Position numbers and translations under genes: made by a program. From Pristiophorus japonicus (taxonomy: Eukaryota): DNA of 60,399 bases. This document shows positions 3,841 through 54,310 of this stretch, piece after piece (positions within the stretch are counted from its first letter, which is position 1; each line of letters begins with the position of its first letter). The stretch covers positions 1-60,399 of the forward strand of contig NW_027251199.1 in assembly GCF_044704955.1 (NCBI RefSeq), in the 5' to 3' direction. Below the pieces are notes generated by a model that worked only from the letters and a program-made list of their open reading frames with translations, did not search any database and had not been told where the DNA came from.

Positions 3841-4127
3841 TTGAAAGGAAAGTGGAGTTGAGGTAGAAGATCAGCCATGATCTTACTGCATGGCAGAGCA
3901 GGCTGGAGGAGCCAAACTCCTGCTCCTATTTCTTATGTTCTTATAGGACAGCCCTCTCATCCCAGGGATCAATCTAGTGAGCACTGAAACAGGTTTTTAA
4001 AGCGAACCTACAAGCAGAATTTGTATTCATTTGAATAGGCGGTGAAGTTTGTAAAGCAGCCCAAAGCCTAGCACTGTGCCAAGTGAATGTACTGCGCTTG
4101 GCACACACACACTTCATGCTGCGTTAC

Positions 4128-5052
4128 CTACTGCTGCTACGGCGTACTGGGTGAGGTTTCTGCGGCGGAGAGGGGCGCAGGCTTGCCAGCTGTTGGTTTT
4201 GGGCAGGAACTGAAAGAGCTCCTGCTCTTCGCGCTCGTGTCTGCCCCCCAGCACGTACATGGTGTCGAAGCGCCTGCCGCTTTGGGGCAGGGAGCGGGCC
4301 GCCGCCGCCCAGCTCTGGGGAAGGCCGCGCTCCAGCACTCTCACCAAGCTGCCGTAAGGGTCGGGCTCGGCGCCGCGCTGGGTCCACTTCACCAGCCGGT
4401 CGAGGAAGGCCAGGCTGAGGAACGGGGCTCTCACCAAGCCCAGCAGCTCCCGCAGCTCGTCCTCCCGGCTGCGGTGGTAGCTCGTCCACTTCACCACTGC
4501 CTCCAGCACTTGGTCGTCCCCGGTCACGTACAGGTCGTCGCTGGCCAGCAGCTCGGCCAGGGCCTGCTTGGAGAGCTGCAGGAACTCCTCCTCGTCGTCC
4601 TCGTCCTCCAGCAGGGCGGCCAGGTGGGTGAGGGCCACCCCGCGGGCGGCGGCGGCCAGGCCGGTGCAGGCGAAGCGCCGGCCGTAGGCCCAGGCCCCCA
4701 CGCAGTTGCCCACACGCAGCTCCCGCTGCAGGAAGGCGGCGCACAGCAGCTTCACCCGCTCAAATTGCAGGAAGTCGGCCGCCTCCAGCAGGGACGTGGC
4801 GTTGTGCCGTCCCACCGTCACTCGGCCGTGGGCAGCGAAGCCCAGCAGCAGCCCGAAGGCCTCGGGGTCCAGGCCGCGCAGCACGATGTGAGCCTCCGAC
4901 CGCTCTCGGGTGCCCCCGTAGAACATGGCCTGGAAATACCGGCTGGCCGACGACAGCACGCCCCGGTTGACATTGAAAAGTCTCTGGCCAACTTCAAGCA
5001 CGGTGTCGGCGGCCGGGGCCCCGTCCCCGGGGCTTGTCGGCTGGCAGGCCAT
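4128..5052 (-). CDS. Kelch-like (BTB-BACK-Kelch) protein, first coding exon; remaining exons lie beyond the window start
   Basis: ATG in GACATGG context. BTB: VLSSASRYFQAMFYGGTRE, LLEAADFLQF. BACK: FLQLS..LAELLASDDLYV..VLEAVVKW..ELLGLVR. First kelch repeat MYVLGG..NSWQACAPL..YAVAAVG. Splice donor TAG|GTAACG at 4127, phase 1. GC/CpG-rich. Confidence 0.92.
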
Positions 5053-5074
5053 GTCCCCAATCCCCGGCCCGCTA

Positions 5075-5135
5075 CTTTATATTTAGCCCGATTCAGAGAG
5101 GCCAGAGTTATGTGTGGCATCTGCGCCTATTTTGG
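5075..5135 (-). promoter_or_regulatory. Candidate muscle-type proximal promoter: MEF2/TATA-like element, E-box and CArG box
   Basis: Minus-strand CTAAATATAA (5086-5077) fits YTA(W)4TAR and overlaps TATAAAG; CATCTG at 5118-5123; CCTATTTTGG at 5126-5135 fits CC(W)6GG. Confidence 0.55.
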
Positions 5136-5212
5136 TGCACTAATAAGGGTGACACTGGGTCACCAGACAAGAATCATCACCAACAAGTGCCCCTTTTAGG
5201 GCACCAATAATA

Positions 5213-5630
5213 TAGGAAATAAACACAGGAACAGGAGTAGGCCATTTAGCCCCTTGAGCCCGTTCTGCCATTCAGTGAGATCGTGGCTGATCTGCGACCT
5301 AACTCCATATACTCGCCTTTGCCCCACATCCCTTAATACCTTTGGTTAACAAAAATCTTATAAATCTCGGATTTAAAATTAACAATTGATCTAGCATCAA
5401 TTGCCGTTTGCGGAAGAGAGTTCTAAACTTCTACCGCCCTTTGTGTGTAGAAGTGTTTCCTAATTTCACTCCTGAAAGTTCTGGCTCTAATTTTGAGACT
5501 AGGCTCCCCACCCCCTCCCCCATTCCTAGACTCCTCAACCAGTAGAAATAGTTTCTCTCTATCTACCCTACCTGTTCCCCTTAAAACTTCAATCCAATCA
5601 CCCCATAACCTTTTAAATTCTAGGGAATAC
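5213..5630 (-). mobile_element. CR1/HE1-type 3' fragment
   Basis: CAGGAGTAGGCCATT tail; minus ORF YSLEFKRL.GD.IEV..FRSEIRKHFYTQRAV. Confidence 0.8.
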
Positions 5631-5909
5631 ACCCTAATGTGTAGAACACATGGCCCAATCAAACTGAAAGAAGCTCAACATTAACAACAACAAATGGTCC
5701 CAACAAAAACAAAGGGAATCTTCCCAACTAAATCAGAATGTTGTTATCAGTGTCTACAAAATATTCTATACCCTGTGGAGCACACCGATTGCGAAAGGCC
5801 TTAAACATACCGGCAGACATGGCATGTTCCCTCTCCAAGGCCACCCGGTCACGGAGAATACCACGGAAGAGAGTCAGCAGCCAGGACGACCACCTCCATG
5901 GTGTTACTT

Positions 5910-7720
5910 TTTTTATTTATTTGTTCATGGGATGTGGGTGTCGTTGGCAAAGCCAGCATTTATTACCCATCCGTAATTACCCTTGAGAAGATGGTAGTGA
6001 GCTGCCTTCTTGAACCGCTGCAGTCTGTGGTGAAGGTACTCCCACTGCGGTGTGAGAGATAGTCTGATCTGTGTTCACACTGCAGTATGTGAAATAGTCG
6101 CCCCGACCTGCAAGAACCATCAGCAGGTCAGTCCTTTAAAGGAGCATACCACTTCACGGTACAGCGCGTACTGGAGAGCGACGACTGTGAAGATGGTGAC
6201 TGGATTGGACATCACAAGGTCCAGGTCGCTGATTGGAGCGTGGACAGGTACAGTAGGGGTAGTGACGTTGGAGCGCCGGAGCAGCGAGTGACTGTGGAAC
6301 GACGTGATACAGGTCCAGGAAAGGCGTGAGTTCGGGGCCCAGAAGAGGCAAGGGCCCAGGGGTAGCACGGGCCAGCCCACACTGCAATATGTGTGCGCAC
6401 TAGGTGCGTGCAGCAGAGCAGGTCTCCAGTCGTCTTGGTTAACCCTTGCCACTGGAGCAAGACCAAGCTCTGACAAGCCCGTGTGGTGGATGGTGTGCAA
6501 CGGCCACCACACGTTAAAAAAAATCCACGCACAGGTATCTTCCTTCATTCAATATGTAGTTTGGGACCTGGAATATTAGGTCCTTCATTGAAACACCTGT
6601 GAACTCATCCATTTTTGGCATGGAAGGAAGTCATCCTCGATACGAGGGACAGCCTATGATAATGATGACTCCCACAGTGCTGTTAGGGAGGGACTTCCGG
6701 GATTTTGATCCAGCGATGATGAAGCAACGGCGATATACTTCCAAATCAGGATAGTGTGTGACTTGGAGGGAACGTGGAGTTGGTGGTGTTTCCATGTGCC
6801 TGCTGCCCTTGTCCTTCTAGGTGGTAGAGGTCACGGGTTTGGCAGTTGCTGCCAAAGAAGCCTTGGCGAGTTGCTGCAGTGCATCTTGTAGATGGTACAC
6901 ACTGTAGCCAGGGTATGTCGGTGATGGAGGGAGTGAATGTTTAAGGTGATGGATGGGGTGCCAATCAAGCGGGCTGCTTTGTCCTGGATGGTGTCAAGCT
7001 TGTTGAGTGTTGTTGGAGCTGTACTAATCCAGGCGAGTGGAGTTGGTGGAAAGGCTTTGGGGAGTCAGGATGTGAGACACCCACTGCTGAATACCCAGCC
7101 TCTGACCTTCTCTCGTTGCCACAGTATTTATGTGGCTGGTCCAGTTAAGTTTCTGGTCAATGGTGACCCCCTAGGATGTTGATGATGGGGGATTCGACGA
7201 TGGTAATGCTGTTGAATGTCAAGGGGCGGTGGTTAAACTCTTGCTTGTTGGAGAACTTGCCACTTATCTGTCCAAGCCTGAATGTCGGCCAGGTCTTGCT
7301 GCATGCGGGCATGGACTGCTCCTTATCTGAGGAGTTGCGAATGGCACTGAACACTGTGCAATCATCAGCAAACACGCCCACTTCTGACCTTATGATAGAG
7401 GGAAGGTCATGATGAAGCAGCTGAAGATGGTTGGGCCTAGGACACTGCTCTAGGGAACTCCTGCAGCAATGTCCTGGGGCTGTGATGATTGACCTCCAAC
7501 CACCACAACCATTTTTCTTTGTGTTAGGTATGACTCCAGCCAGTGGAGAGCTTTCCCCCTGATTCCCATTGACTTCAGTTTTACTAGGGCTCCTTGATGC
7601 CACACTCGGTCAAATGCTGCCTTGATGTAAAAGGCAGTCACTTTCACCTCACCTCACCTCTGGAATCCAGCTCTTTTGACCATGTTTGGACCAAAGCTGT
7701 AATGAAGTCTGAAGCCGCGT
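5910..7720 (-). mobile_element. Degraded LINE (CR1/L2 group) RT and 3' region, interrupted at 6046-6667
   Basis: Minus ORFs IKAAFDRVWHQGALVKL..GVP and GVFADDCTVF. Confidence 0.8.
6046..6667 (+). mobile_element. Non-autonomous retroelement with RTE-derived 3' tail, 8-bp TSD
   Basis: Ends GGAAGGAAGTCATCCTCGATACGAGGGACAGCCTATGATAATGATG, matching the RTE 3' end; flanked by ACTCCCAC at 6038-6045 and 6668-6675. Confidence 0.82.
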
Positions 7721-8519
7721 GGTCCTGGCAGAACTATACCCCCAGCAAGGAATTCAAGGGACTGTGTCCCAGCAAAGAATCAGTGGCTTCAGGATAGGAG
7801 AGTGGAAAATGTGTTAAAAAAAATTGTCACAGCACCCTGGATCACAGAATATTCTTTTCACCTCCATTGCACTGACATCAATTCCGAACCAACCAGCCCC
7901 CCAACCGAATGGTCCTCATCGTCCACTATTTAAATTTAAAAACAAAGACAGATATGATGAGAAAGTAAGGAGACACATCATCCTAAAATTTACCCAATTA
8001 CAAAAATAGTCCGATGGGGCCTGCAGGAGTTAACTGGGAAAGGGGTTAAAGGTTACCTCGGATTATTTAACTATATTCTGTGCTCCCGTATAACACACGA
8101 TATTCCCACACAAATCTTTCCTTAGCAGATCCTTCTGCAAATACAAGTTCCCAAAGCAGCTCGAGAGGCCACCCAGCTGTCTGGCTCTGGGCGCCAATCC
8201 ACTGAGGAACTTCCCATGGCAGAAAATAAGCCATGGTGCGTACTTAGTGAACTAGGTAGCTGCGTTAAAGAAAACATGGAATTAAAAGGGAAATTAATCT
8301 TGTATGTCATACATTACTGTGTACATCTATATACACACACACACACACACACACACAAGTGTGTACACCTGCAGCGGTTTTCAGGTTTTGACTGCTCGTG
8401 TTAGAACTTGGGGGGGGGCTGTTTTTCTATGTTAAGGGTGCTATATATGTTTTGTTGTTAAGGATGGGTTTATGTCTGGGGCGATGATGTGTTGTCAGAT
8501 TATTTATTTATTATTGGGC

Positions 8520-10486: not shown

Positions 10487-13400
10487 CCTAGGGGGAGTGT
10501 TTGCTAGTGCTGTTGGGGAGGGGTTAAATTAAAATGGCATGGGGAATGGGAACCTATGCAGGGAGACAGAGGGAAATAAAATGGGGGCAGAAGCAAAAGA
10601 TAGAAAAGAGAATAGTAAAAGTGGAGGGCAGAGAAACAAGGCAAAAATCAAAAAGGGCCACATTACAGCAAAATTCTAAAGGGACAAAGAGTGTTAAAAA
10701 GACAAGCCTGAAGGCTCTGTGCCTCAATGCGAGGAGTATTCGTAATAAGGTGGATGAATTAACTGCGCAGGCAGCTATTAACGATTATGATATAATTGGG
10801 ATTACGAAGACATGGCTCCAGGGTGACCAATGCTGAGAACTCAACATCCAGGGGTATTCAACATTCAGGAAGGATAGACAGAAAGGAAAGGAGGTGGGGT
10901 AGCGTTGCTGGTTAAAGAGGAAATTAATGCAATAGTAAGAAAGGACATTAGCTTGGATGATGTGGAATCTGTATGGGTAGAGCTGCGGAATATCAAAGGG
11001 CAGAAAACACTAGTGGGAGTTGTGTACAGACCACCAAACAATAGTTGTGAGGTTCGGGATGGCATCAAACAAGAAATTAGGGATGCGTGCAATAAAGGTA
11101 CAGCAGTTATCATGGGCGACTTTAATCTGCATATAGATTGGGTTAACCAAGTTGGTAGCAATGCGGTGGAGGAGGATTTCCTGGAGTGTATTAGGGCTGG
11201 TTTTCTAGACCAATATGTCGAGGAACCAACTAGAGAGCTGGCCATTCTAGACTGGGTGTTGTGTAATGAGAGAGGACCAATTAGCAATCTCGTTGTGCGA
11301 AGCCCCCTGGGGAAGAGTGACCATAATATGGTAGAATTCTTTACTAAGATGGAGAGTGACAGTGTTAATTCAGAGACTAGGGTCCTGAACTTAAGGAAAG
11401 GTAACTTCGATGGTATGAGACGTGAATTGGCTAGGATAGACTGGCAAATGATACTTAAAGGGTTGACAGTGGATAGGCAATGGCAGACATTTATAGATTA
11501 CATGGATGAACTTCAACAATTATACATCCCTGTCTGGAGTAAAAATAAAAAGGGGAAGGTAGCTCAACTGTGGCTAACAAGAGAAATTAGGGATAGTGTT
11601 AAATCCAAGGAAGAGGCATATAAATTGGCAAGAAAAAGCAGCAAACCTGAGGACTGGGAGAATTTTATAATTCAGCAGAGGAGGACAAAGGGTCTAATTA
11701 GGAGGGGGAAAATAAAGTATGAGAGGAAGCTTGCAGGGAACATAAGCTTCTATAGATATTTGAAGAGAAAAAGATTAGTGAAGACCAACGTTGGTCCTTT
11801 GCAGACAGAATCAGGTGAATTTATAATGGGGAACAAAGAAATGGCAGACCAATTGAACAAATACTTTGGATCTGTCTTCACTAAGGAAGACACAAATAAC
11901 CTTCTGGAAATACTAGGGGTTCGAGGGTGTAGCAAAAGGGAGGAACTGAAGGAAATCCTTATTAATCAGGAAATTGTGTTAGAGAAATTGATGGGATTGA
12001 AGGCTGATAAATCACCAGGGCCTGATAGGCAGCATCCCAGAGCACTTAAGGAAGTGGCCCTAGAAATAGTGGATGCATTGGTCATCATTTTCCAACATTC
12101 TATTGACTCAGGATCAGTTCCTATGGACTGGAGGGTAGCTAATGTAGCACCACTTTTTAAAAAAGGAGAGAGAAAATGGGTAATTATAGACCGGTTAGCC
12201 TGACATCGGTGGTGAGGAAAATGTTGGAATCAATTATTAAAGATGAAATAGCAGCGCATTTGGAAAGCAATGACAGGATCGGTCCAAGTCAGCATGGATT
12301 TATGAAAGGGAAATTATGCTTGACAAATCTAGAATTTTTTGAGGATGTAACTAGTAGAGTGGACAAGGGAGAATCAGTGGATGTGGTATATTTGGACTTT
12401 CAAAAGGCTTTTGACAAGGCCCCACACAAGAGATTAGTGTGCAAAATCAAAGCACATGGTATTGAGAGTAATGTACTGATGTGGATAGAGAACTGGTTGG
12501 CAGATAGGAAGCAGAGAGTGGGAATAAACGGGTCCTTTTCATTAGGTGAAGGAATTGAATGTAATATCTCCAAGTTTGCAGATGACACTAAGCTGGGTGG
12601 CGGTGTGAGCTGTGAGGAGGATGCTAAGAGATTGCAGGGTGACTTAGACAGGTTAAGTGAGTGTGCAAATGCATGGCAGATGCAGTATAATGTGGATAAA
12701 TGTGAGATTATCCACTTTGGTGGCAAAAACAGGAAGACAGAATATTATCTGAATGGTGACAGATTAGGAAAAGGGGAGGTGCAACGAGACCTGGGTGTCA
12801 TGGTACATCAGTCATTGAAGTTTGGCATGCAGGTACAGCAGGCGGTGAAGAAGGCAAATGGCATGTTGGCCTTCATAGCTAGAGGATTTGAGTATAGGAG
12901 CAGGGAAGTGTTACTGCAATTGTACAGACCCTTGGTGAGGCCACACCTGGAATATTGTGTTAGTTTTGGTACCCTAATCTGAGGAAGGACATTCTTGTTA
13001 TTGAGGGAGTAAAGCGAAGGTTCACCAGATTGATTCCCAGAATGGCAGGACTGACATATGAGGAGAGACTGGATCAACTGGGCTTCTATCCACTGGAGTT
13101 TAGAAGAATGAGAGAGGATCTCATAGAAACATATAAAATTCTGACAGGATTGGACAGTTTAGATGCAGGAAGAATGTTCCCGTTGCTGGGGAGTTCCAGA
13201 ACCAGGGATCACAGTCTAAGAATAATGGGTAAGCCATTTAGGACCGAGATGAGGAGAAACTTCTTCACTCAGAGAGTGGTTAACCTGTGGAATTCTCTAC
13301 CACAGAAACTTGTTGAGGCCAGTTCGTTAGATATATTCAAAAGGGAGTTAGATATGGCCCTTATGGCCAAAGGGATCAAGGGGTATGGCGAGAAAGCAGG

Positions 13401-15252: not shown

Positions 15253-15501
15253 TGTCATGTATCTTACATTATTATATATAACTGTATCCCAGCATGCTAT
15301 ACATGACTGTAATAAGATATGACCTGTAACCACCAGCATACCTTACCACCGGGGGTGCACTTGCAAGAGACAGGTATATAAGCACAGGTCTCAGGCAAGT
15401 GCCGCATTCCAGAGCTGTGAAATAAAAGGTGCAGGTCCAGAGTGACCTTGACTTCACCACAAGCCTCATGTGAATCTGTACTGAGGGGACAGGACTTTAC
15501 A
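15253..15501 (+). repeat. Gypsy 5' LTR
   Basis: TG..CA ends, TATATAA and AATAAA inside; 7 mismatches to the 3' LTR by my count. Confidence 0.97.
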
Positions 15502-15536
15502 GTGGCGATGGGTTACGGGATTACAGAATCCACAGA

Positions 15537-16415
15537 ATGGCGAACAACGGATCAGATGAAAAATACAATGCAGGAGACAATTGGGAGGACTTTATAGAAA
15601 GGCTCCAGCAAAGCTTTGTAACCAAAGACTGGTTAGGCGACGATATGGCAGACAAGAGAAGAGCCCATCTCTTGACCAGCTGTGGCTCGAAAACATACGC
15701 TTTAATGAAGGATTTGTTGGCACCTGAGAAACCAGCAAGCAAGTCGTTTGAAGAATTGAGCACACTGGTAAGAGACCACCTGAAGCCAGCGAGCAGCCTA
15801 CACATGGCCAGACACAGGTTCTACAACTACAGACGCTGTGTGGGCCAGAGCATACCCGACTTCGTGGCAGAACTTCGAAGGTTGGCTAGTTTATGTGAGT
15901 TCTCCGATGAACTGAGGAGAGAAATGCTGAGAGACTCTTTCATTGAAGGAATAGGCCACGCAGGCATATTCCGAAAGCTCATAGAGACCAAGAACCTGAC
16001 CTTAGATGCAGCAGCACTGGTTGCACAGACATTCTTGGTAGGGGAAGAAGAAACGAGGTTGATTTACAATGCAGGTACGACAACTAACGAAATAATGGAA
16101 CAAGGAGTTCACAGCATTAGAAAAGCTGCTACCCCCACATAAAACCGGCAGAACAGGCTTTCGATAGCAAGCAGTGGCAACAGAAGCCATCAAGGGCCAC
16201 AGGAACAGCCGTTCACACCTCATCAACCCACAATGCGAGCAATCAACTACAAATTGAGAGAAGCTCAAGAGAGATCAGCCAGACGCAGCCCATTCTTTGC
16301 AAGCAGTCTGTGCTGGAGGTGTGGGGGTGGGCACTCTTCAAGGGAATGTCGATTTCAGCAGGCTGTTTGCAGGAACTGTGAATATACAGGGCATTTGGCC
16401 CGCATGTGCAAATAA
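15537..16415 (+). pseudogene. gag: Gypsy gag (premature stop at 16140) with two CCHC knuckles
   Basis: WEDFIERL..FVAELRRLASLCEF..LRD.FI.GI; CWRCGGGHSSREC and CRNCEYTGHLARMC. Confidence 0.9.
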
Positions 16416-16553
16416 ACGGCAGCTCGGCTGGTATACGAATCGGATGGGTCGGAAAGCGGACCAGAAGACGGTGGGGACAGTACCTGGGACACCGATGTAC
16501 AGCGGGTCAACACGATCAATTGCCGCTGCTCCTACGACAGGACGCCTCCTATA

Positions 16554-19500
16554 ATGATGAGGGTCCTACTCAACGGGATATCTGTCAACATGGAGCTGGA
16601 TACAGGAGTGAGTCAATCTCTCATGGGCGCTCAACAATTTGAACAACTGTGGCCGCATAAAAGAGACAGACCAAAACTCACAAGGGTCGACACCAAACTA
16701 AGAACCTATACTAAAGAAATCGTACCAGTCCTTGGCAGCGCCATGCTCTCTGTCACACACAAAGGGACAGTGAATCGACTTCCCCTGTGGATTGTCCCCG
16801 GAGACCCCCCAGCACTGCTGGGGAGAAGCTGTCTGGCAAAACTAAACTGGAAATGGGATGATGTCCATGCCATGTCATTAGAGGAACGGACCTCCTGCTC
16901 AACAGTTATAAAACGATTTGAACATCTCTTTCAGCCAGGTGTGGGCACTTTCAAAGGGGCCAAAGTCAAAATCTACATCACACAGGATGCTAGACCGGTC
17001 CATCACAAGGCCAGAGCTGTACCCTATGTGATGAGAGAAAAGATTGAACACGAACTAGACAGGCTTCTGCGGGAAGGCATTATATCACCTGTGGAATTTA
17101 GCGACTGGGCAAGTCCCATCGTCCCAGTCATGAAGCCTGATGGATCCGTACGAATCTGTGGGGACTACAAATCTACCATAAACAGAGTCTCCCTACAGGA
17201 CCAGTACCCGCTGCCCAGAGCGGAGGACTTATTTGCCACATTGGCTGGAGGTAAACTTTTCTCAAAATTAGACCTCACATCTGCGTATATGACGCAAGAA
17301 TTGACCGAGGAATCCAAGCTACTCACCACCATCAGCGCACATCGAGGCCTTTTCATGTACAATCGATGCCCATTCGGCATCAGGTCGGCAGCTGCCATAT
17401 TCCAGCGCAACATGGAGAGTCTGCTCAAGTCCATCCCGGGGACGGTTGTATTTCAAGACGACATACTTATCACAGGTAGGGACACCGACTCCCATCTCCG
17501 TAATTTGGAGGAAGTACTAAAGCGGTTGGATCGGGTAAGCCTGCGAGTAAAGAAATCCAAGTGCCTGTTTCTCGCACACGAGGTTGAATTTTTGGGCAGG
17601 ATTGTCGCTGATGGAATCCGCCCAACAGAGTCCAAAACAGAAGCAATTCGCCTGGCACCCAGGCCCCAGAATGTCTCAGAACTGCGCACCTTTCTCGGGC
17701 TACTCAATTACTTTGGGAACTTTATGCAGAACTTAAGCACGCTGCTGGAGCCTCTCCACGTGCTCCTCAGGAAGGGGTGCGATTGGTTTTGGGGGGACGC
17801 CCAGGATCGTGCCTTCAATAAGGCACGCAACCTTCTGTGTTCCAACAGTGTTTTGATTTTCTTTGACCCAGGTAAAAAGCTAGTTCTCACATGCGATGCG
17901 TCAGCGTATGGGGTTGAGTGCATTTTGCAACATGTCAATAGTGCGGGCAAATTACAACCCATAGCTTATGCCTCCAGGTCACTTTCGCGGGCGGAGCGCG
18001 GGTACGGAATGGTAGAGAAGGAGGCGCTCGCGTGCGTGTACGGTGTCAAAAAGATGCACCAATACCTTTTCGGGGCCAAGTTCGCATTAGAAACCGACTG
18101 CAAGCCCCTCACTTCCCTCCTATCCGAGAGCAAGGCAATAAACGCCACACCTCGGCGCGAATTCAACGGTGGGCACTCATGCTGGCGTCCCACGACTATA
18201 CCATAAGGCACAGACCAGGCACAGGCAACTGTGCCGATGCGCTCAGCAGGCTACCCCTGGCGACCACGGAAGGGTCTGACGAACAGGACTGTGAGATAGT
18301 CATGGCAATCAATGCCTTTGAGTCCACAGGTTCGCCCATGACAGCTCGCCAAATCAGAACCTGGACGGCCAGCGACCCCACATTATCCTTAATAAAAAGA
18401 TGTGTCCTAACCGGTGACTGGGCAGAGGCTCGCGATGCCTGCCCCGAGGAATTAAAACCCTTTCACAGGCGCATGCATGAGCTTTCACTACAAGCAGACT
18501 GCCTGATGTGGGGCAGCCGAGTAGTCATGCCTCTGCGACGCAGAGAGGCATTTGTCCGGGAGCTCCACCGCGAGCACCCGGGATCATTCTCATGAAGGCC
18601 ATAGCCAGATCCCACGTCTGGTATTGACGCGGACTTGGAGCTCTGCGTCTGAAGGTGCACCATTTGTGCCCAACTCAACAATGCCCCCAGGGAGGCTCCA
18701 CTGAGCCCCTGGCCTACCAAACCGTGGTCGCGGGTGCACGTAGACTATGCGGGCCCATTCATGGGCAAAATGTTCCTCGTAGTTGTAGATGCATTTTCAA
18801 AGTGGATCAAATGCACCATTTTAAACTCGAGCACAACCTCCACCACTGTGGAGAGCCTCGCAACCATGTTTGCAATGCACGGAATCCCTGACATATTGGT
18901 CAGTGACAATGGTCTGTGCTTCACCAGCGCAGAATTCCAAGACTTTATAATTGACCACGGCATAAATCACATCAAGATGGCACCGTTCAAGCCGATCTCC
19001 AACGGCCAGGTGGAGAGAGCAGTGCAAATTATTAAACAAGGCATGCTTAAAATCTAAGATCCCACGCTGCAGGGTCGCCTGTCGCGACTGCTGTTGGCAT
19101 ACAGATCTCGTCCGCACTCACTGACTGGGATCCCCCCGCGCAACTGTTGATGAAAAGGACTTTAAAAACAAGGCTCTCATTAATCCTCCCAGACATGCAC
19201 GAAATCGTTGAGGCAAAGCGCCGTAAGCTGACTGAGTACCATGACAGAAATTCGAGAGGGAGATGGAATGAGATAGGGGACAAAGTGTTTGTACTAAACT
19301 ATGGCAGGGGTCCCAAATGGCTTGCAGGGACAGTAACGGGCAAGGAAGGAAACAGGCTACTGGTAGTACGAATGGACAATGGCAAAACCTGCCGGAGGCA
19401 TGTAGACCAAGTCAAAAGCAGATTTACCAAGAGCACTGCGGAACCAGAGGCAGACTACAATGTGGAACTCGCACCACACCTGGTGAAAAGACAGAGGGAA

Positions 19501-19659
19501 CAACCTGAGGAAAGGGCAATCCCAACAGACAGCCCAGGCGAGTCAACAACAATCACACCAATCGAAACAGACAGCCCAGACGAGATACCAGCAACCACAC
19601 CCAAAGAAAAACAGACATCAAGGCAAACAACTGAACCACAACTCAGACGCTTCACGTGA
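16554..19659 (+). pseudogene. pol: Gypsy pol (PR-RT-RNaseH-IN), frameshifted after RNase H
   Basis: PR MELDTG; RT RICGDYK, PFGI, VFQDDIL; RH LTCDASAYG, EKEALA; IN HVDYAGP, VSDNG, SNGQVERAV, KWLAG..RRHVDQ. Confidence 0.93.
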
Positions 19660-48329: not shown

Positions 48330-48918
48330 GTTAAAAGATCAGGTTACGGTTTTTGATATTTTGTATCCAATCGGAAACCCGTCGGTGTTAAAGTTTCACA
48401 CTGGCTACTTGCACATTTGAAGAAGTTATACTCGCGCCCGCTGCTGGTACTTCTGCAATCAGCATTAATGCACAGATACAAAACTGACCGAAGGGTACAT
48501 TTTTTTAATTCAACTCCTATTTCTGAAAGGGGTAAACTTCTGAAGTTTAAGGAATTAGAATGTCACATCATATGGTATATATCTCGAGTTTTATAAAAAT
48601 GAAAATCTGAGTTCTAAATATGGAATAGTCTACCACCTTCCTCTTGTTCGATGTTTGAACTTTAATTGGAATTGGTGTCAATATTTCATGCAATGTACAT
48701 GTGGTAAACAGTGGTTAGGTCATAGGCTGTGCTCTCTGATCTGCGTCCAGGTACAAATCAAACTGGTATACATACAGCATCATTGAAAAAGTTAGCAGAT
48801 AAACTTGTTTCTTCAGCTCTACAACCATAACAGCATGAGAAAATTTGTGGAAATTGCTATATGGATGCATTTATATCCATTCATAGTAAGTATAAAATTG
48901 CCATACTGTTAATGTATT

Positions 48919-49155
48919 TGAAGTGGGACATTGCACTGTGCACGCGGGCTTTAAACTAATCAAATTGTGCCAAAGGATATCGCACGAGGGGAAACATGTA
49001 TTTTAAATGTATAAAAGGCTGTTGAAAATTATCAGCGGAACAGAGACTTGGCTACACCCAGAGCAAGACCTTTTCCCCACCGGTGAAAATAAAGACTACT
49101 AAAACTTTCAAACGCAGACCTGGTGTTGAGTGTTTATTTCAAACACTCCATTTCA
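48919..49155 (+). repeat. ERV 5' LTR (U3 internally shorter)
   Basis: TATAAAA, AATAAAGACTA and CCATTTCA end shared with the 3' LTR. Confidence 0.88.
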
Positions 49156-49157
49156 AT

Positions 49158-49175
49158 TGGCCTAGTTGGCAGGAT
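49158..49175 (+). promoter_or_regulatory. Primer binding site, tRNA-Ser
   Basis: TGGCCTAGTTGGCAGGAT is 16/18 to TGGCGTAGTCGGCAGGAT, the complement of the vertebrate tRNA-Ser 3' end as I recall it; lies 2 nt after the LTR. Confidence 0.8.
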
Positions 49176-49529
49176 CTCAAGCTGGTGGCGGACACCGACA
49201 GATGGAAGCCATGACAAAGGCCTGAGTGCGTTTTTAATTATCACGCACATTTAGGACAAGGGCAGAAATCCGTCTGGTGTCAGCTGCCTGAGATATCCGA
49301 ATCTGCAGGTCTGGTCGGGACTTCAAGTAGTCAGTGGAAAATTCCCAGGTAAAACAATTATGGTCCGTTATATAGAAGTGTGTCTGTGTAACGTTGTGAA
49401 TGTTGCAAGTAACGATCTCGGCTCAGGAGAAGCTGGCAGGAGGTGTACCACTAACAACCAAAAAGATTGCAAGTAACGGTCTCACTCATGAGGAGTAAGT
49501 AAGGGACGTACTGCTGATAATGTATAGCC

Positions 49530-49820
49530 ATGGGAAGTGAGAAACTCGAGTGGGGACCAGAGGGGTTTCTGACACGGTACCTAGCAGATAAAAATCAAAA
49601 ACTAATTGAAACAATGATTAAACAAAATTGGAAACCAGATGACCCACCCACGGCACAAAGGAAGTGATGGGAGTCGGAAAAGAAATAAAAGGAGAAAGCC
49701 CTCGTTTTAGTTACTCGCGCATATTATGAATTAAGTAGATGGACTAGACTATTGACTGAGAAAGCGACGAAATAAACCGATAGTAGGTGTGATGGCGATA
49801 GCACTCGTCAGGACAATATA
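49530..49820 (+). pseudogene. Probable gag N-terminal remnant
   Basis: GCCATGG start, MGSEKLEWGPEGFLTRYLADKNQKLIETMIKQNWKPDD.. then stops; preceded by donor-like GGA|GTAAGT at about 49495; followed by a short CR1 fragment at about 49835-49955. Confidence 0.55.
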
Positions 49821-50744
49821 GAAGTGGTGGAGGTTTAGAGAAGATCTCTTCACCCAAAGAGTGGTGGAGGGTCTGGAACTAACTGCCTGAAAGGGTAGTA
49901 GAGGCAGAAACCGTCACCACATTTAAAAGGTAATTGGAGGTGCACTTGGAGTGTATGGAGATCAGAAATTGAAACTGGTTTAAGGAGTAATGGATAGTTA
50001 TGACTCAATAAAAAGGAGATAAGGGAAGATTATGTTTAAGGCATATTCCTTTGTGTGGCTGTGGCTGTGGCTCCTCCCCCTTTTCCATGTGGCTTTGGGA
50101 AGTTTAAGATTGGAATTACTGAGGTTAATTAACCTATTAATAATCAGACTTTTATTATGGCCACAATAAAATTCTGGTTGGTGTAAATTGTGTGGAGTGC
50201 CTTTAGTTCCAAACATAAGGCATTTCACATCAATAATTGGTCAGAATTTTTAAATTCTGTGTAACTGGAGAGAAAAGGATGAAAAGCTATTGTGTACGGA
50301 GTTGTTTTTCTGAATGTTTATTTTAAGTGTAAAATCACAGAGACTTAAACTGGAAAGGCTGTAAGCTGTGGGACGAAAGTTGACATTGATTGATGGTGTC
50401 TGTGTTTGTCGGCTTTCGAAACAAGGGAAGTTAACTCTTTCACAGGCAGCTGTGAACTCTGTTTTAATTCAGTGGGCGATACCTTTTGAATATTGGAAAT
50501 GTTCTTAATTTGAAGAGAATATTTGCTCCTGGGGTAGAAGGAATTTTAGGGCCATGTTACAAATTAACCCCTTGGGCTCTTAAGCAGAATCACCAGAGAT
50601 TCTCTGTTTCTTTTGTTTTAAGTAAGTGACCATCGGGAAGAAGCGATGTTGTTTAAAGGGGTTACTGGATTGTGCCTGAGGGATCAGGAGGGCACACCAC
50701 CGTAACCGACTACATCTGGCCCCGAGTAAATCTCAGGAGTGGGA

Positions 50745-50910
50745 GGTGGCGGGCCAGGTAATGGAACAAAACTATGCCAGGGTGGAAGTTTTGAAATCCG
50801 GTACATGGGACCGTATAATATCGTTGATAAAGGTAGTCCCATGGTACATGCAGGCCGGTTACCTAGGAGAATTAAATGGTTTTATGTTAACCAGATTAAG
50901 TTTTTTCAGT
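50745..50910 (+). pseudogene. Integrase C-terminal GPY/F module remnant
   Basis: GQVMEQNY../GSFEIRYMGPYNIVDKGSPMV..LPRRIKWFYVNQIK fits the G(D)xV..F.P.(Y/W).GP(Y/F).I..Y.V..FH.NQLK pattern. Confidence 0.75.
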
Positions 50911-50944
50911 TCACCAGTAGGTACCAAGACAAGGGGCAACGGTT

Positions 50945-52060
50945 ATGAAAATGAGGAGCTGGATTCATCCTCTCCAGGGGGATGAGGAAGAAGGGGTGCC
51001 TAATGGGATACCCCCACCTAATCAGGTACAGTATGATCCAAATGGAGGTGGATTGAACACGGGAGCTGGAAGAATCTCCTCGGGTCCCAGATCTGGAACC
51101 ACCTCTTATCCATAGACATACCTCGCAAACCCCGCTAATCTCACGAAGTAGTAAGAGACATATCATGAATGGTAGAAGTAGGGATGGCCGAGCCTATTGA
51201 CAAGAATCACAGCAGAAGGCGGTGAGGCCTGATTAATATGTTGCAACTGATTTAATGCTAGATTATAGAAGGGGAACAAATCGTCTTCAACGCAACGGCT
51301 TGAAGTAATGTATGGATCTTGGTTAATGGAACAAGCCGGAGGAAACCTGCAGCATATTGCAGAGGGAAAGCTCTCTTTCTGGATAACTGATTGAGACCCG
51401 AGGGCAATGTCCACTTGTCAACTTACTAAGTCTCTGCACAAAGTCAGAAGGTTGGTACAGGTGTACCCGGCGGCACAAGTGTCATTTACATCATCCGGTT
51501 AAAGATAGTATGGTATTACCCAATCATGCCTGAGAAAATTTAGTAGGATACAATGAACACCGGAAATGTAACCTGGGTGGATGGGAAAAACATGTGTAGC
51601 CCCAGGCAGAATTGGGTGTGCTCTAACTCAGGACATGTTCATTTGCCTCTACAACATGGTAGAACATGCAGCCTCTGCATGCGGGTTTAATTGGGATGGG
51701 ATAACATGTAACTGCACCATGAAGGCAATTGCGAGACAGCATTTTCCCGTACGATCTGTAAAGAGGGAAGGGTGAATATTGTGACAGCACCATACACCGG
51801 GAATGCCAGTACAGTATCAATCTCACTTATCCCATCACGACAGGAAGTTTGTTTTACCCCAATCCAAACTGTGAGCCTTGAGGCACAGGTTTCATTAAGT
51901 ATTTATTTGGGTAGGCAAGCAAATATCACAAAGGAGTTCAAAATGTAACTGCCAAAGGGAAGATATAATGAATTTGGATAGTTAATTGGGCCAATTGAGG
52001 ACCAAGTACAATGGGCATTAAGCAAAATGGGGAAGAGGGTCACAACAGCTAGACGCTGAG
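50945..52060 (+). pseudogene. env-like remnant 1 (no TM seen)
   Basis: MYGSWLMEQAGGNLQHIAEGKLSFWIT (51308-51390); GCALTQDMFIC..ACGF..CNCTM; GEYCDST..QY; VCFTPIQTV. Confidence 0.65.
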
Positions 52061-52079
52061 GTGATACTTACGATACATA

Positions 52080-53310
52080 TGATCGAAATAGTCCGACATT
52101 GAACCACGAGACGATGTATGGTTTTCATGTTATCTATTGTCTAACAACAACCGACACACACTATCGGTAAGCAGCGGGGGTGGCAACTGTTAACACATTT
52201 GTCATAGCCAGTATATACCAAGAAGTTCAAGACTTAGCCCAACGTTTGAGAACCCTTTTACTAAAGAGAAACGATCTGACTTCGCAGTTGTCAGAAACGG
52301 GACGAGGTCGCCAGACAAATGCTGCAAGTCGAGAAAATCCGAGAGCCTCATGCCCAAACTATCAATACGTTAAGTGTGACTAAATGATCTAACCCAAGAA
52401 AGACATAAAGAACTTGTATGTGCAATGTACAGCATGTGATCACTAGGGAACATCCGATACAATGTAAACCAGATGAAACGGAAAAATACCCGATTGGTTA
52501 AATAATGAGCAGTTGTCCAAATGGACTAAGGACGGTATTACCTTCTGCGATGTTCGCAAAACAACACAAGTGTTTTTGTCCCCAAGTAATTGTATCACCA
52601 AAGAGGTGAAGTTGATAGGTATGGTCCTAGCTATCCCACAGATAGAGGAGTGGACCTCTGGACGGTACGGAACATTGGCGAGATACAAGGTCAATCCCGG
52701 GTTTTATTCCACGATATGCCCCCTTATGCAGTAAACAAACAGCCCCCTTTCAGGGAGGGACTGAGGCGGCAGCCCGGGATGATGGGACGTACTGCATACC
52801 TACCAAGGGAAATATGAGTACAAGCATGGTACTGTCATATGTGCGATCCCAGAACCTAATTTTTGTTTTAAGCCCAAAACTGTGGTCCAGATAGGCCATC
52901 GATACCTATTCCCACAAAAGGAGGAACACATAAAGAACATTACTTTGAACAACCCAGAATGCAGTGATGAAATGAAACAATTCGAGATACCAAGTTGGCA
53001 AGACATTCCCCGTCTCGAAAAGCAATTGAAAAAGGACACTGAGAAAGTAAAAGGACATTATTAGATTTTGGAGGATTCCATACAGCATTCGAAGGACATC
53101 GAAGAAACCCTAAAGGACATTCAGTGGTGCGAACATGTATGGAATTGGGGAAATGAATGTGGATATCCATCCATGGATTTGTATAGCTTCTCACGTACTG
53201 GTGGTTATACAGTTAGGGCTAGCAGTGGGATGGGGAATTGGGTTACTTGTGGCATGCAGGACGAAGGAATTATTTAGCTTCACATGCACTAAGCATCCCT
53301 AACCTAGCAC
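52080..53310 (+). pseudogene. env-like remnant 2 (with membrane anchor)
   Basis: SGVATVNTFVIASIYQEVQDLAQRL (fusion-peptide/heptad-like); CAMYSM*SLGNIRYNVNQM/GKIPDWL; GTYCIPT/YEY..CAIPEPNFCFKPKTVVQIG; Trp-rich QWCEHVWNWG; TM HPWICIASHVLVVIQLGLAVGWGIGLLVAC at about 53168-53258. Confidence 0.75.
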
Positions 53311-53402
53311 TGATCACCGCAATTGGGGTGGGATGCATAAGGCAGGTAACATAATACTTTGTATTCTTAGGCTGGGTAGCCAATTAGCAAAAGAGAGGGG
53401 GT

Positions 53403-53895
53403 TTAAATGGGAATCAAGGGGTTAACAATGCAACCTGCAAATTAGCTGCAATGGCTGAGACAGCATGTAAACATAAACCCCAGACTAAAGTAAATCCCCT
53501 GAAATAATGTCTTAAGCGCAAGCAGGAATGTGGTTTGTAAATGGCGTAGTCTAAACAGCAACGGCTTCAAATGTACACACCACAAACTTCAGGCGAATGT
53601 TGAACGTTACGCGTGCTAGGCATAAAAATAGGCGAGTGGCTATGTGACGCGAAAGACGATTAACCAATCAGCCACTGTGCATGCGGGCTTTGAGCGAATC
53701 AAATGGTGCCAAAAGGATTGTGAGGTTGAGCAGGTACCTTTAAGTGTATAAAAAGCTGTTGAAACTTACGCATCGTTGGACAGTGACTTGGCTAGACCCA
53801 TAGCAGGTAATTTTCCCCGCCGGTGCGAATAAAGACTATTTGAACTTTCGAACGTAGACCTGGTGTCTAGTGTTTATTTTAAATACTCCACTTCA
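53403..53895 (+). repeat. ERV 3' LTR (about 493 bp)
   Basis: Follows the PPT; contains CCAAT, TATAAAA, AATAAA; ends CCACTTCA plus TSD. Confidence 0.88.
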
Positions 53896-53967
53896 GTATT
53901 AATGAAATATTAAGTTCTGGTCTTTCATATTTGTCATTTCACCAATGTGAGAGAGCTTGTTGTAAAA

Positions 53968-54310
53968 ACATAGAAACATAGAAAATAGGTGGAGCAGGCC
54001 ATTCGGCCCTTCGAGCCTGCACCGCCATTCAATGAGTTCATGGCTGAACATGCAACTTCAGTACCCCATTCCTGCTTTCTCACCATACCCCTTGATCCCC
54101 CTAATAGTAAGGACTACATTTAACTCCTTTTTGAATATATTTAGTGAATTGGCCTCAACAACTTTCTGTGGCAGAGAATTCCACAGGTTCACCACACTCT
54201 GGGTGAAGAAGTCTCTCCTCATCTCGGTCCTAAATGGCTTACCCCTTATCCTTAGACTGTGACACCTGGTTCTGGACTTCCCCAACATTAATAAGAACAT
54301 AAGAACATAA
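53968..54310 (-). mobile_element. CR1/HE1-type 3' fragment
   Basis: (AAACATAG)n tail; minus ORF KSRTR.HSLRIRGKPFRTEMRR.FFTQ.VVNLWNSLP. Confidence 0.88.

Follow-up and report, generated by a model that had tools for sequence, protein, structure and literature searches.

The stretch analysed here, hereafter the window, comprises 60,399 nucleotides of a shark genome (Pristiophorus japonicus, assembly GCF_044704955.1, contig NW_027251199.1, positions 1-60,399, forward strand) and carries an endogenous retrovirus (ERV) at positions 48919-53895. This element is very probably a dead, pol-less recombinant of two canonical shark retrovirus lineages, A and B, that was copied in trans; its parents are not lokiretroviruses (Loki) but are probably related to snakehead retrovirus (SnRV), and their envelope protein (Env) is predicted to be of class Ib, the type of the paramyxo/pneumovirus fusion (F) protein. 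In itself, the copy in the window is an unremarkable dead fossil. A first-pass annotation of this DNA had recognised an ERV from a target-site duplication (TSD), 8-bp termini, a tRNA-Ser primer-binding site (PBS), a gag start, an integrase tail with a GPY motif, env remnants and a polypurine tract (PPT), and all of these are borne out in the sequence. It was also right that reverse transcriptase (RT) is missing: no pol is found in 48919-53895. The features of the element are as follows.

48914..48918, plus strand: left TSD, GTATT, 5 bp
48919..49155, plus strand: 5' long terminal repeat (LTR) of lineage B, 237 bp, starting TGAAGTGG, most of U3 gone
49158..49175, plus strand: PBS for tRNA-Ser(AGA), 16 of 18 bases paired
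49176..49815, plus strand: leader and gag start (gag from 49530), stops inside, 77% nucleotide identity to pol-bearing lineage-B copies
49826..50475, plus strand: non-coding filler opening with a repeat tail, common to partly deleted lineage-B copies
50500..50945, plus strand: integrase C-terminal remnant of lineage A, GPY at 50808
51190..52098, plus strand: env piece 1, of lineage A, an F-like head without fusion peptide and first heptad, Cys-rich motif at 51617-51709
52100..52169, plus strand: short further Cys-rich env remnant, YCLTT at 52135, present too in the lineage-A copy L093
52166..53270, plus strand: env piece 2, of lineage B, with the second half of the fusion peptide, heptad, F-like beta region, second heptad and a transmembrane segment (53195-53251)
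53389..53401, plus strand: PPT
53403..53895, plus strand: 3' LTR, about 493 bp, final bases CCACTTCA
53896..53900, plus strand: right TSD, GTATT

Lineage B supplies the LTR, PBS, gag start and last env piece of the element, and lineage A supplies the integrase tail and the upstream env piece. In the breakpoint map, the lineage-B copy L155, which has LTRs, gag, pol and a single env with a furin site and a whole fusion peptide, matches the window solely at 48994-49815 and 52166-53895, and the env match begins inside the fusion peptide of L155. The lineage-A copies L093, L066 and L107 match the window solely within 50100-52169 and lack this LTR. Env piece 1 has 70-80% DNA identity to single-env lineage-A elements (L066, L081, L090-L107), which are likewise without it. 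Among 20 loci chosen for long gag-env spacing or long gag frames, B-type parts of pol stand behind a window-type leader or gag start in 11, with RT in nine and env piece 2 as well in five. The closest DNA matches to the window element have the same deleted layout, and natural Env proteins align to family copies at two places in tandem. RT identity between lineages A and B is just 40-45%. In this 5.9 Gb genome, probes from env, the integrase tail and the gag start have at least 150 matches each; these are lower bounds, as 150 of 5,000-8,000 candidates were scored per probe and 150/150 matched. The lineage-A copy L093 is itself an env hybrid (L093:8027-9289), with a second Cys-rich region, heptad and transmembrane segment from another env type, and serial env recombination appears to be common in these families.

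The 8-bp inverted termini TGAAGTGG and CCACTTCA match perfectly, and of 11 two-LTR copies analysed with a strict terminus pattern, six have a 5-bp TSD with at most one mismatch. The lengths of the two LTRs (237 bp against about 493 bp) show that most of U3 is missing from the 5' LTR. The PBS agrees at 16 of 18 bases with a tRNA-Ser(AGA) gene of the host, at the gene's 3' end, and a Ser-type PBS is seen in 35 family copies. The tRNA-Ser 3'-end pattern has 1,022 exact matches genome-wide, and long tandem arrays on contig C23 (about 18.5-20.5 Mb, period about 1.95 kb) carry it. Over 36 aa, the gag start is 42% identical to the N-terminus of Gag in a sister family that bears pol. The repeat tail that opens the filler is probably the 3' end of a long interspersed nuclear element (LINE), resembling 54122-54214 on the minus strand, and the filler includes an imperfect 38-bp palindrome at 50142-50179.

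Trees of RT were built with three Loki elements (L110-L112), SnRV (L147) and gamma, delta and foamy viruses as references, and Gypsy-like proteins as an outgroup. The gamma, delta and foamy labels were assigned by RT motifs. L110-L112 have RT that fits the published Loki signature and Env that hits Pfam Fusion_gly (2/2 tested), and the RT of L147 is identical, over the stretch compared, to the SnRV row of Dataset S2 of the Loki paper. The RT-bearing relatives that were placed share the LTR, PBS and gag start of the window element, and L155 shares the downstream env piece too. In every RT tree, Loki branches off as the sister group of the retroviruses, with the shark RTs placed within the latter (100/98), and the same split is found with a mixture model (99/97); Loki and the outgroup were flagged as long branches by the tree tool. 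Lineage-B RT groups with the sister shark family and cyprinid-fish ERV proteins (97/95), and lineage-A RT with frog and coelacanth ERV proteins (88/91), the 'NYNRIN-like' names on RT neighbours being automatic labels. Foamy RTs form a separate clade with full support (100/100), with the shark RTs outside it. A clade with Loki is rejected for lineage B (p-AU 1e-67, approximately unbiased test) and for lineage A (p-AU 0.0009). The first-pass annotation had proposed a lokiretrovirus, either a shark member or a new sister lineage, and had named an RT tree of pol-bearing relatives as one check; the RT nests among described retroviruses, inside the canonical clade, and the proposal fails there.

The nearest named reference in RT is SnRV. 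Five lineage-B RT stretches have 38-44% identity to SnRV against 30-40% to Loki, with SnRV higher in 5/5, and SnRV outscores Loki, gamma and foamy RT for all five. The RT of the lineage-A copy L080 is 43% identical to SnRV against 32-35% to Loki. The shark RT motif is of the (L/V)PQGF(H/Y)NSP type, as in SnRV, where the data set of the Loki paper has CPFGYxNSPAEFNIFL instead. The 9-codon pattern of Loki RT has no exact match in the shark genome, which is a weak test, and none in viral contigs; scanning the viral contigs with shark RT gave no confirmed relative. The test does not reject a clade of A, B, the fish and frog proteins and SnRV (p 0.10), but the recovered tree lacks it, and a grouping with SnRV is not rejected in a second test (p 0.44). 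Published work places an SnRV-related ERV lineage (CmiERV lineage I) in the elephant shark (Han 2015, PMC4422223), gives the name Huo to the clade related to SnRV (Xu 2018, PMC6001957) and assigns cartilaginous-fish RT mostly to clade III (Blanco-Melo 2024, PMC11089739). Both lineages are likely members of clade Huo.

The parents could instead be separate, unnamed deep lineages that are no nearer to SnRV than to other class III-like groups, one of them perhaps with a Loki-like env donor. The branching order of the RT trees, in which SnRV falls in a polytomy throughout, is compatible with this, as are the low RT identity of A and B, their positions in different clades and the far higher score of Loki than of SnRV against shark Env. 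Against it stand the rank of SnRV above Loki, gamma and foamy RT for five B stretches, the reported presence of SnRV-related ERVs in a cartilaginous fish (PMC4422223) and an alignment of SnRV Env over 283 columns with shared motifs, and we regard such an origin as less likely. The shark lineages resemble SnRV and SnRV-related ERVs in RT motifs, in RT identity (SnRV being the top named reference), in host group and, with a weak profile match, in the overall layout of Env. They differ in that no clade with SnRV is resolved and their Env is far nearer to that of Loki, and the window element differs in its Ser PBS and in being a pol-less recombinant of two lineages.

The first-pass annotation read env as one gene in the order of the F1 subunit: a fusion-peptide-like segment, heptad, Cys-rich beta region, heptad and transmembrane segment. 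This order does not hold, as its motifs are drawn from the two env pieces. The motif C..FIC..CG..C (51617-51709) lies upstream of the fusion-peptide-like segment (52171), so the claimed order joins two genes; only G.YC (52784) and C..FCF.P (52840-52875) follow that segment. The corresponding cysteine stretch of piece 2 was lost in a gap of roughly 140 bp at about 52736, which is not in other copies, and piece 2 also has several stops and frameshifts and no furin site. The fusion-peptide-like segment itself (52171-52200) is the second half only, the recombination joint at 52166 falling within the peptide. Piece 1 of the window additionally lacks about 430 bp of the N-terminal part that sister copies have. 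The reported lack of a gamma-type immunosuppressive domain and CX6CC is confirmed, with neither LxNRxxLD nor CX6CC found in three frames of the window env region, which sets the shark env apart from gamma/epsilon-type ERVs.

It is very improbable that the two pieces were once one functional envelope, with a duplicated F-like head as surface subunit, or that piece 1 was a secreted, fusion-dead blocker. Twelve two-piece copies were submitted for measurement of the deletion in piece 1, and in 11/11 measured, about 190 nt (fusion peptide and first heptad) are absent relative to 10 single-env copies. That this deletion is constant, and probably a multiple of three, would suit a retained function, as would the frame of the window copy, open across the joint, and the codon pattern of piece 2. 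Across the family, however, the pieces are in frame in 4/27 copies and out of frame in 23/27, and a shared stop at the end of piece 1 is visible in 17/27. In piece 2 there is no furin site and only half a fusion peptide, and the Cys-rich part of piece 1 has evolved with no third-position excess (0.060/0.058/0.059 for the three codon positions). A single functional two-headed Env is rejected on this evidence of frame, stop, fusion peptide and codon bias.

The identification of a cartilaginous-fish ERV with a non-gamma, F-like envelope was sound, and Env is homologous to that of Loki. An alignment of shark Envs matches Loki Env with an hhalign probability of 96% (E 2.6e-9, 287 columns) and SnRV Env weakly (27.6%, E 6.5e-4, 283 columns). 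A profile of 17 natural shark Env stretches, from which window, Loki and SnRV rows were excluded, gives 91 bits to window piece 2, 63 bits to piece 1 and 42 bits to Loki Env. It also gives 2-20 bits to 16/17 foamy Envs, six of them with E<0.05; shuffled or reversed foamy Env controls (n=357) reach at most 3.4 bits, and none of 18 gamma and delta Env-sized frames exceeds 0 bits. The best foamy match spans the Cys-rich beta region, not the coiled coil. Neither the window env pieces nor 13 natural shark Envs match the TLV_coat or foamy Env families of Pfam, and SnRV Env matches none of Fusion_gly, TLV_coat and foamy Env in the same scan. The comparison of Env with Pfam profiles suggested by the first-pass annotation thus yields no Fusion_gly, TLV_coat or foamy Env match, and the F-likeness it had seen stands instead on predicted fold and on homology to Loki Env. 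A word-index homolog search with the env frame of a family copy found nothing. Env homologs are labelled as from sharks or a skate in 10/10 cases whose names were looked up, and one of these proteins has a 100% match in the present shark genome. P0132, annotated in bamboo shark, is a stop-free F-like Env of 739 aa. P0127 and P0135 are gene models fusing an env fragment to host sequence, one Niban 1-like in shark and one unnamed with a caspase domain, and may stem from faulty annotation or from exonised parts of ERVs.

For the sister family of lineage B, the Env core was modelled with a mean predicted local distance difference test score (pLDDT) of 68. This model matches the F protein of respiratory syncytial virus (Foldseek E 1.1e-11, TM-score 0.44-0.48), and in a VIA-align search of 48,161 chains, F proteins take the first nine ranks (Z 8.7-10.8), followed by two foamy Env chains. 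Residues 12-407 align with F proteins over the predicted three-domain F core. For a poorer shark Env model, the PDB matches listed are all F or foamy Env. Predicted Envs of walleye dermal sarcoma virus and walleye epidermal hyperplasia virus weakly match the low-confidence shark Env model (E 1.7e-3 and 0.06). On these models, the Env of the parent lineages is predicted to have the class Ib (F-type) fold, as in foamy Env and paramyxo/pneumovirus F. Foamy Env was tied to F by structure, with no conservation of sequence (Fernandez 2024, PMC11468914); its Cys-rich beta region is matched here at the sequence level by up to 20 bits. The shark viruses differ from foamy viruses in that their RT is outside the foamy clade, the Gag of the sister family has two CCHC fingers and, judging from alignments, the receptor-binding part of sister shark Envs, where present, is N-terminal to the F core and not inserted.

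Foamy Env shares the F fold and SnRV Env weakly has the same layout, so an F-like layout is not diagnostic of Loki and an F-like env is no basis for calling an element Loki. Lineage-A relatives (L077, L080) have tether plus RNase H, but all retroviruses have such a dual RNase H (PMC7947760), which is thus not diagnostic of Loki either. Membership of Loki, or a position as its sister lineage, is hardly credible for this shark element: the homologous Env, the dual RNase H and one published Loki LTR that also opens TGAAGTG are outweighed by the rejection of an RT clade with Loki for both parents and by relatives without the Loki RT signature. The shark lineages share with Loki an LTR-gag-pol-env layout with tether plus RNase H, and their homologous F-like Env has, in the parent lineages, a furin site, fusion peptide, coiled coil and transmembrane segment; they differ in RT and in having no Fusion_gly match in Env. 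Loki was defined by RT and found in 0/6 cartilaginous-fish genomes (Wang and Han 2021, PMC7947760), a record that is unchanged by the present element.

Several observations weigh against a recombinant of two SnRV-related lineages with class Ib Env. SnRV is resolved as the sister of neither lineage, lying in a polytomy in all RT trees, and these trees were made without ERV-L, ERV-S, ERV4, fish foamy-like or CmiERV references. The RT link of lineage A depends on L105 (68-76% nucleotide identity in env). SnRV Env scores just 7.2 bits (E 13) on the shark profile, far below the 42 bits of Loki Env. Pfam Fusion_gly is matched by neither the window pieces nor any of 13 natural shark Envs (0/13, E<=1), but by 2/2 Loki Envs, and no F protein emerged from sequence-profile searches of the PDB. 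Of the fold models, the better is that of the sister family, from an alignment that contained Loki, SnRV and window rows, and the model made without Loki and SnRV rows is poor (pLDDT 50, best E 8e-4). Finally, copies of env piece 2 show more change at third positions (0.080/0.069/0.112), and the segment missing from piece 1 was probably lost in frame.

A recombinant origin would have proceeded by loss of gag-pol from a lineage-B genome and uptake of an integrase-to-env segment of lineage A, most likely through template switching between co-packaged RNAs. The hybrid would have kept only its cis signals (LTR, Ser PBS, leader and PPT) and been copied in trans by B-type helpers, its double env never having made one working protein. 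Exchange with coding helper lineages may have refreshed piece 2, which would explain its third-position excess. We infer the composite nature of the element, its copying in trans and this refreshment by helpers. The parent viruses are predicted to have entered cells by a furin-cleaved, trimeric F-type fusogen. Non-autonomous recombinant ERV families typically keep cis signals, lose coding regions, reach many copies and spread in trans. The present case differs in that RT identity between its parents is only about 40-45% and the env pieces of both stand in tandem.

Distances between paired LTRs (Kimura two-parameter, K2P) are 0.05-0.13 in 12 related copies, L037 having been excluded as it has no clean pair, and 0.22 over 219 bases for the window pair. 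A K2P of 0.1 corresponds to about 230 or 23 million years at 2.2e-10 or 2.2e-9 substitutions annually at each site, the rates used in PMC4422223 and PMC7947760, and this tenfold spread leaves the age of the element poorly fixed. The 5-bp TSD is a likeness to ERV3 and ERV4, for which TSDs of this length were given in a study that left SnRV-related ERVs unclassified (Chong 2014, PMC4299795). A young and large lineage-A family (L080 type) has RT that is 94-99% identical across 150 scored matches and many stop-free frames of more than 1,400 codons, and in related families the two LTRs of a pair are only about 3% apart; this likeness of RT, the open frames and the closeness of LTR pairs point to recent activity of F-type-env retroviruses in this shark.

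Elsewhere in the window, a kelch-like gene of the host has an exon at 4117-5076 on the minus strand, an open frame with BTB, BACK and a Kelch repeat. On the plus strand, 10878-12979 is a LINE carrying domains of endonuclease and RT, and 15474-19656 is an LTR element of Gypsy type in which gag, protease, RT and RNase H are present.

The portions available of PMC13524379, PMC12583693, PMC11521997, bioRxiv 10.1101/2024.03.17.585361 and PMC12440569 contain nothing on the Env of this lineage, and no report of an F-like Env in SnRV-related or shark ERVs was found in a literature search whose coverage mostly excluded subscription papers. New here are the mapped hybrid structure and, from profile comparisons, a link at the level of sequence that connects shark Env with Loki Env as well as foamy Env. 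The element is a record of recombination between two retrovirus lineages whose RT identity is only about 40-45%. Wang and Han found Loki Env and canonical retroviral Env to have no similarity in sequence and prefer independent gains of env (PMC7947760, PMC9040795); Loki, foamy and SnRV Env have so far been linked by structure only or not at all. A profile from the Env of shark retroviruses with canonical RT detects both Loki and foamy Env, so the origin of retroviral env becomes testable with an alignable Env tree. The F-type envelope is suggested to be an old kind, widespread among retroviruses. Tentatively, F-type (class Ib) env may even be ancestral to retroviruses and lokiretroviruses together, with the shark Envs as a sequence bridge linking Loki, foamy and SnRV Env. 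If so, the class Ia Env of orthoretroviruses would be a later replacement, contrary to the favoured view of independent env gains.

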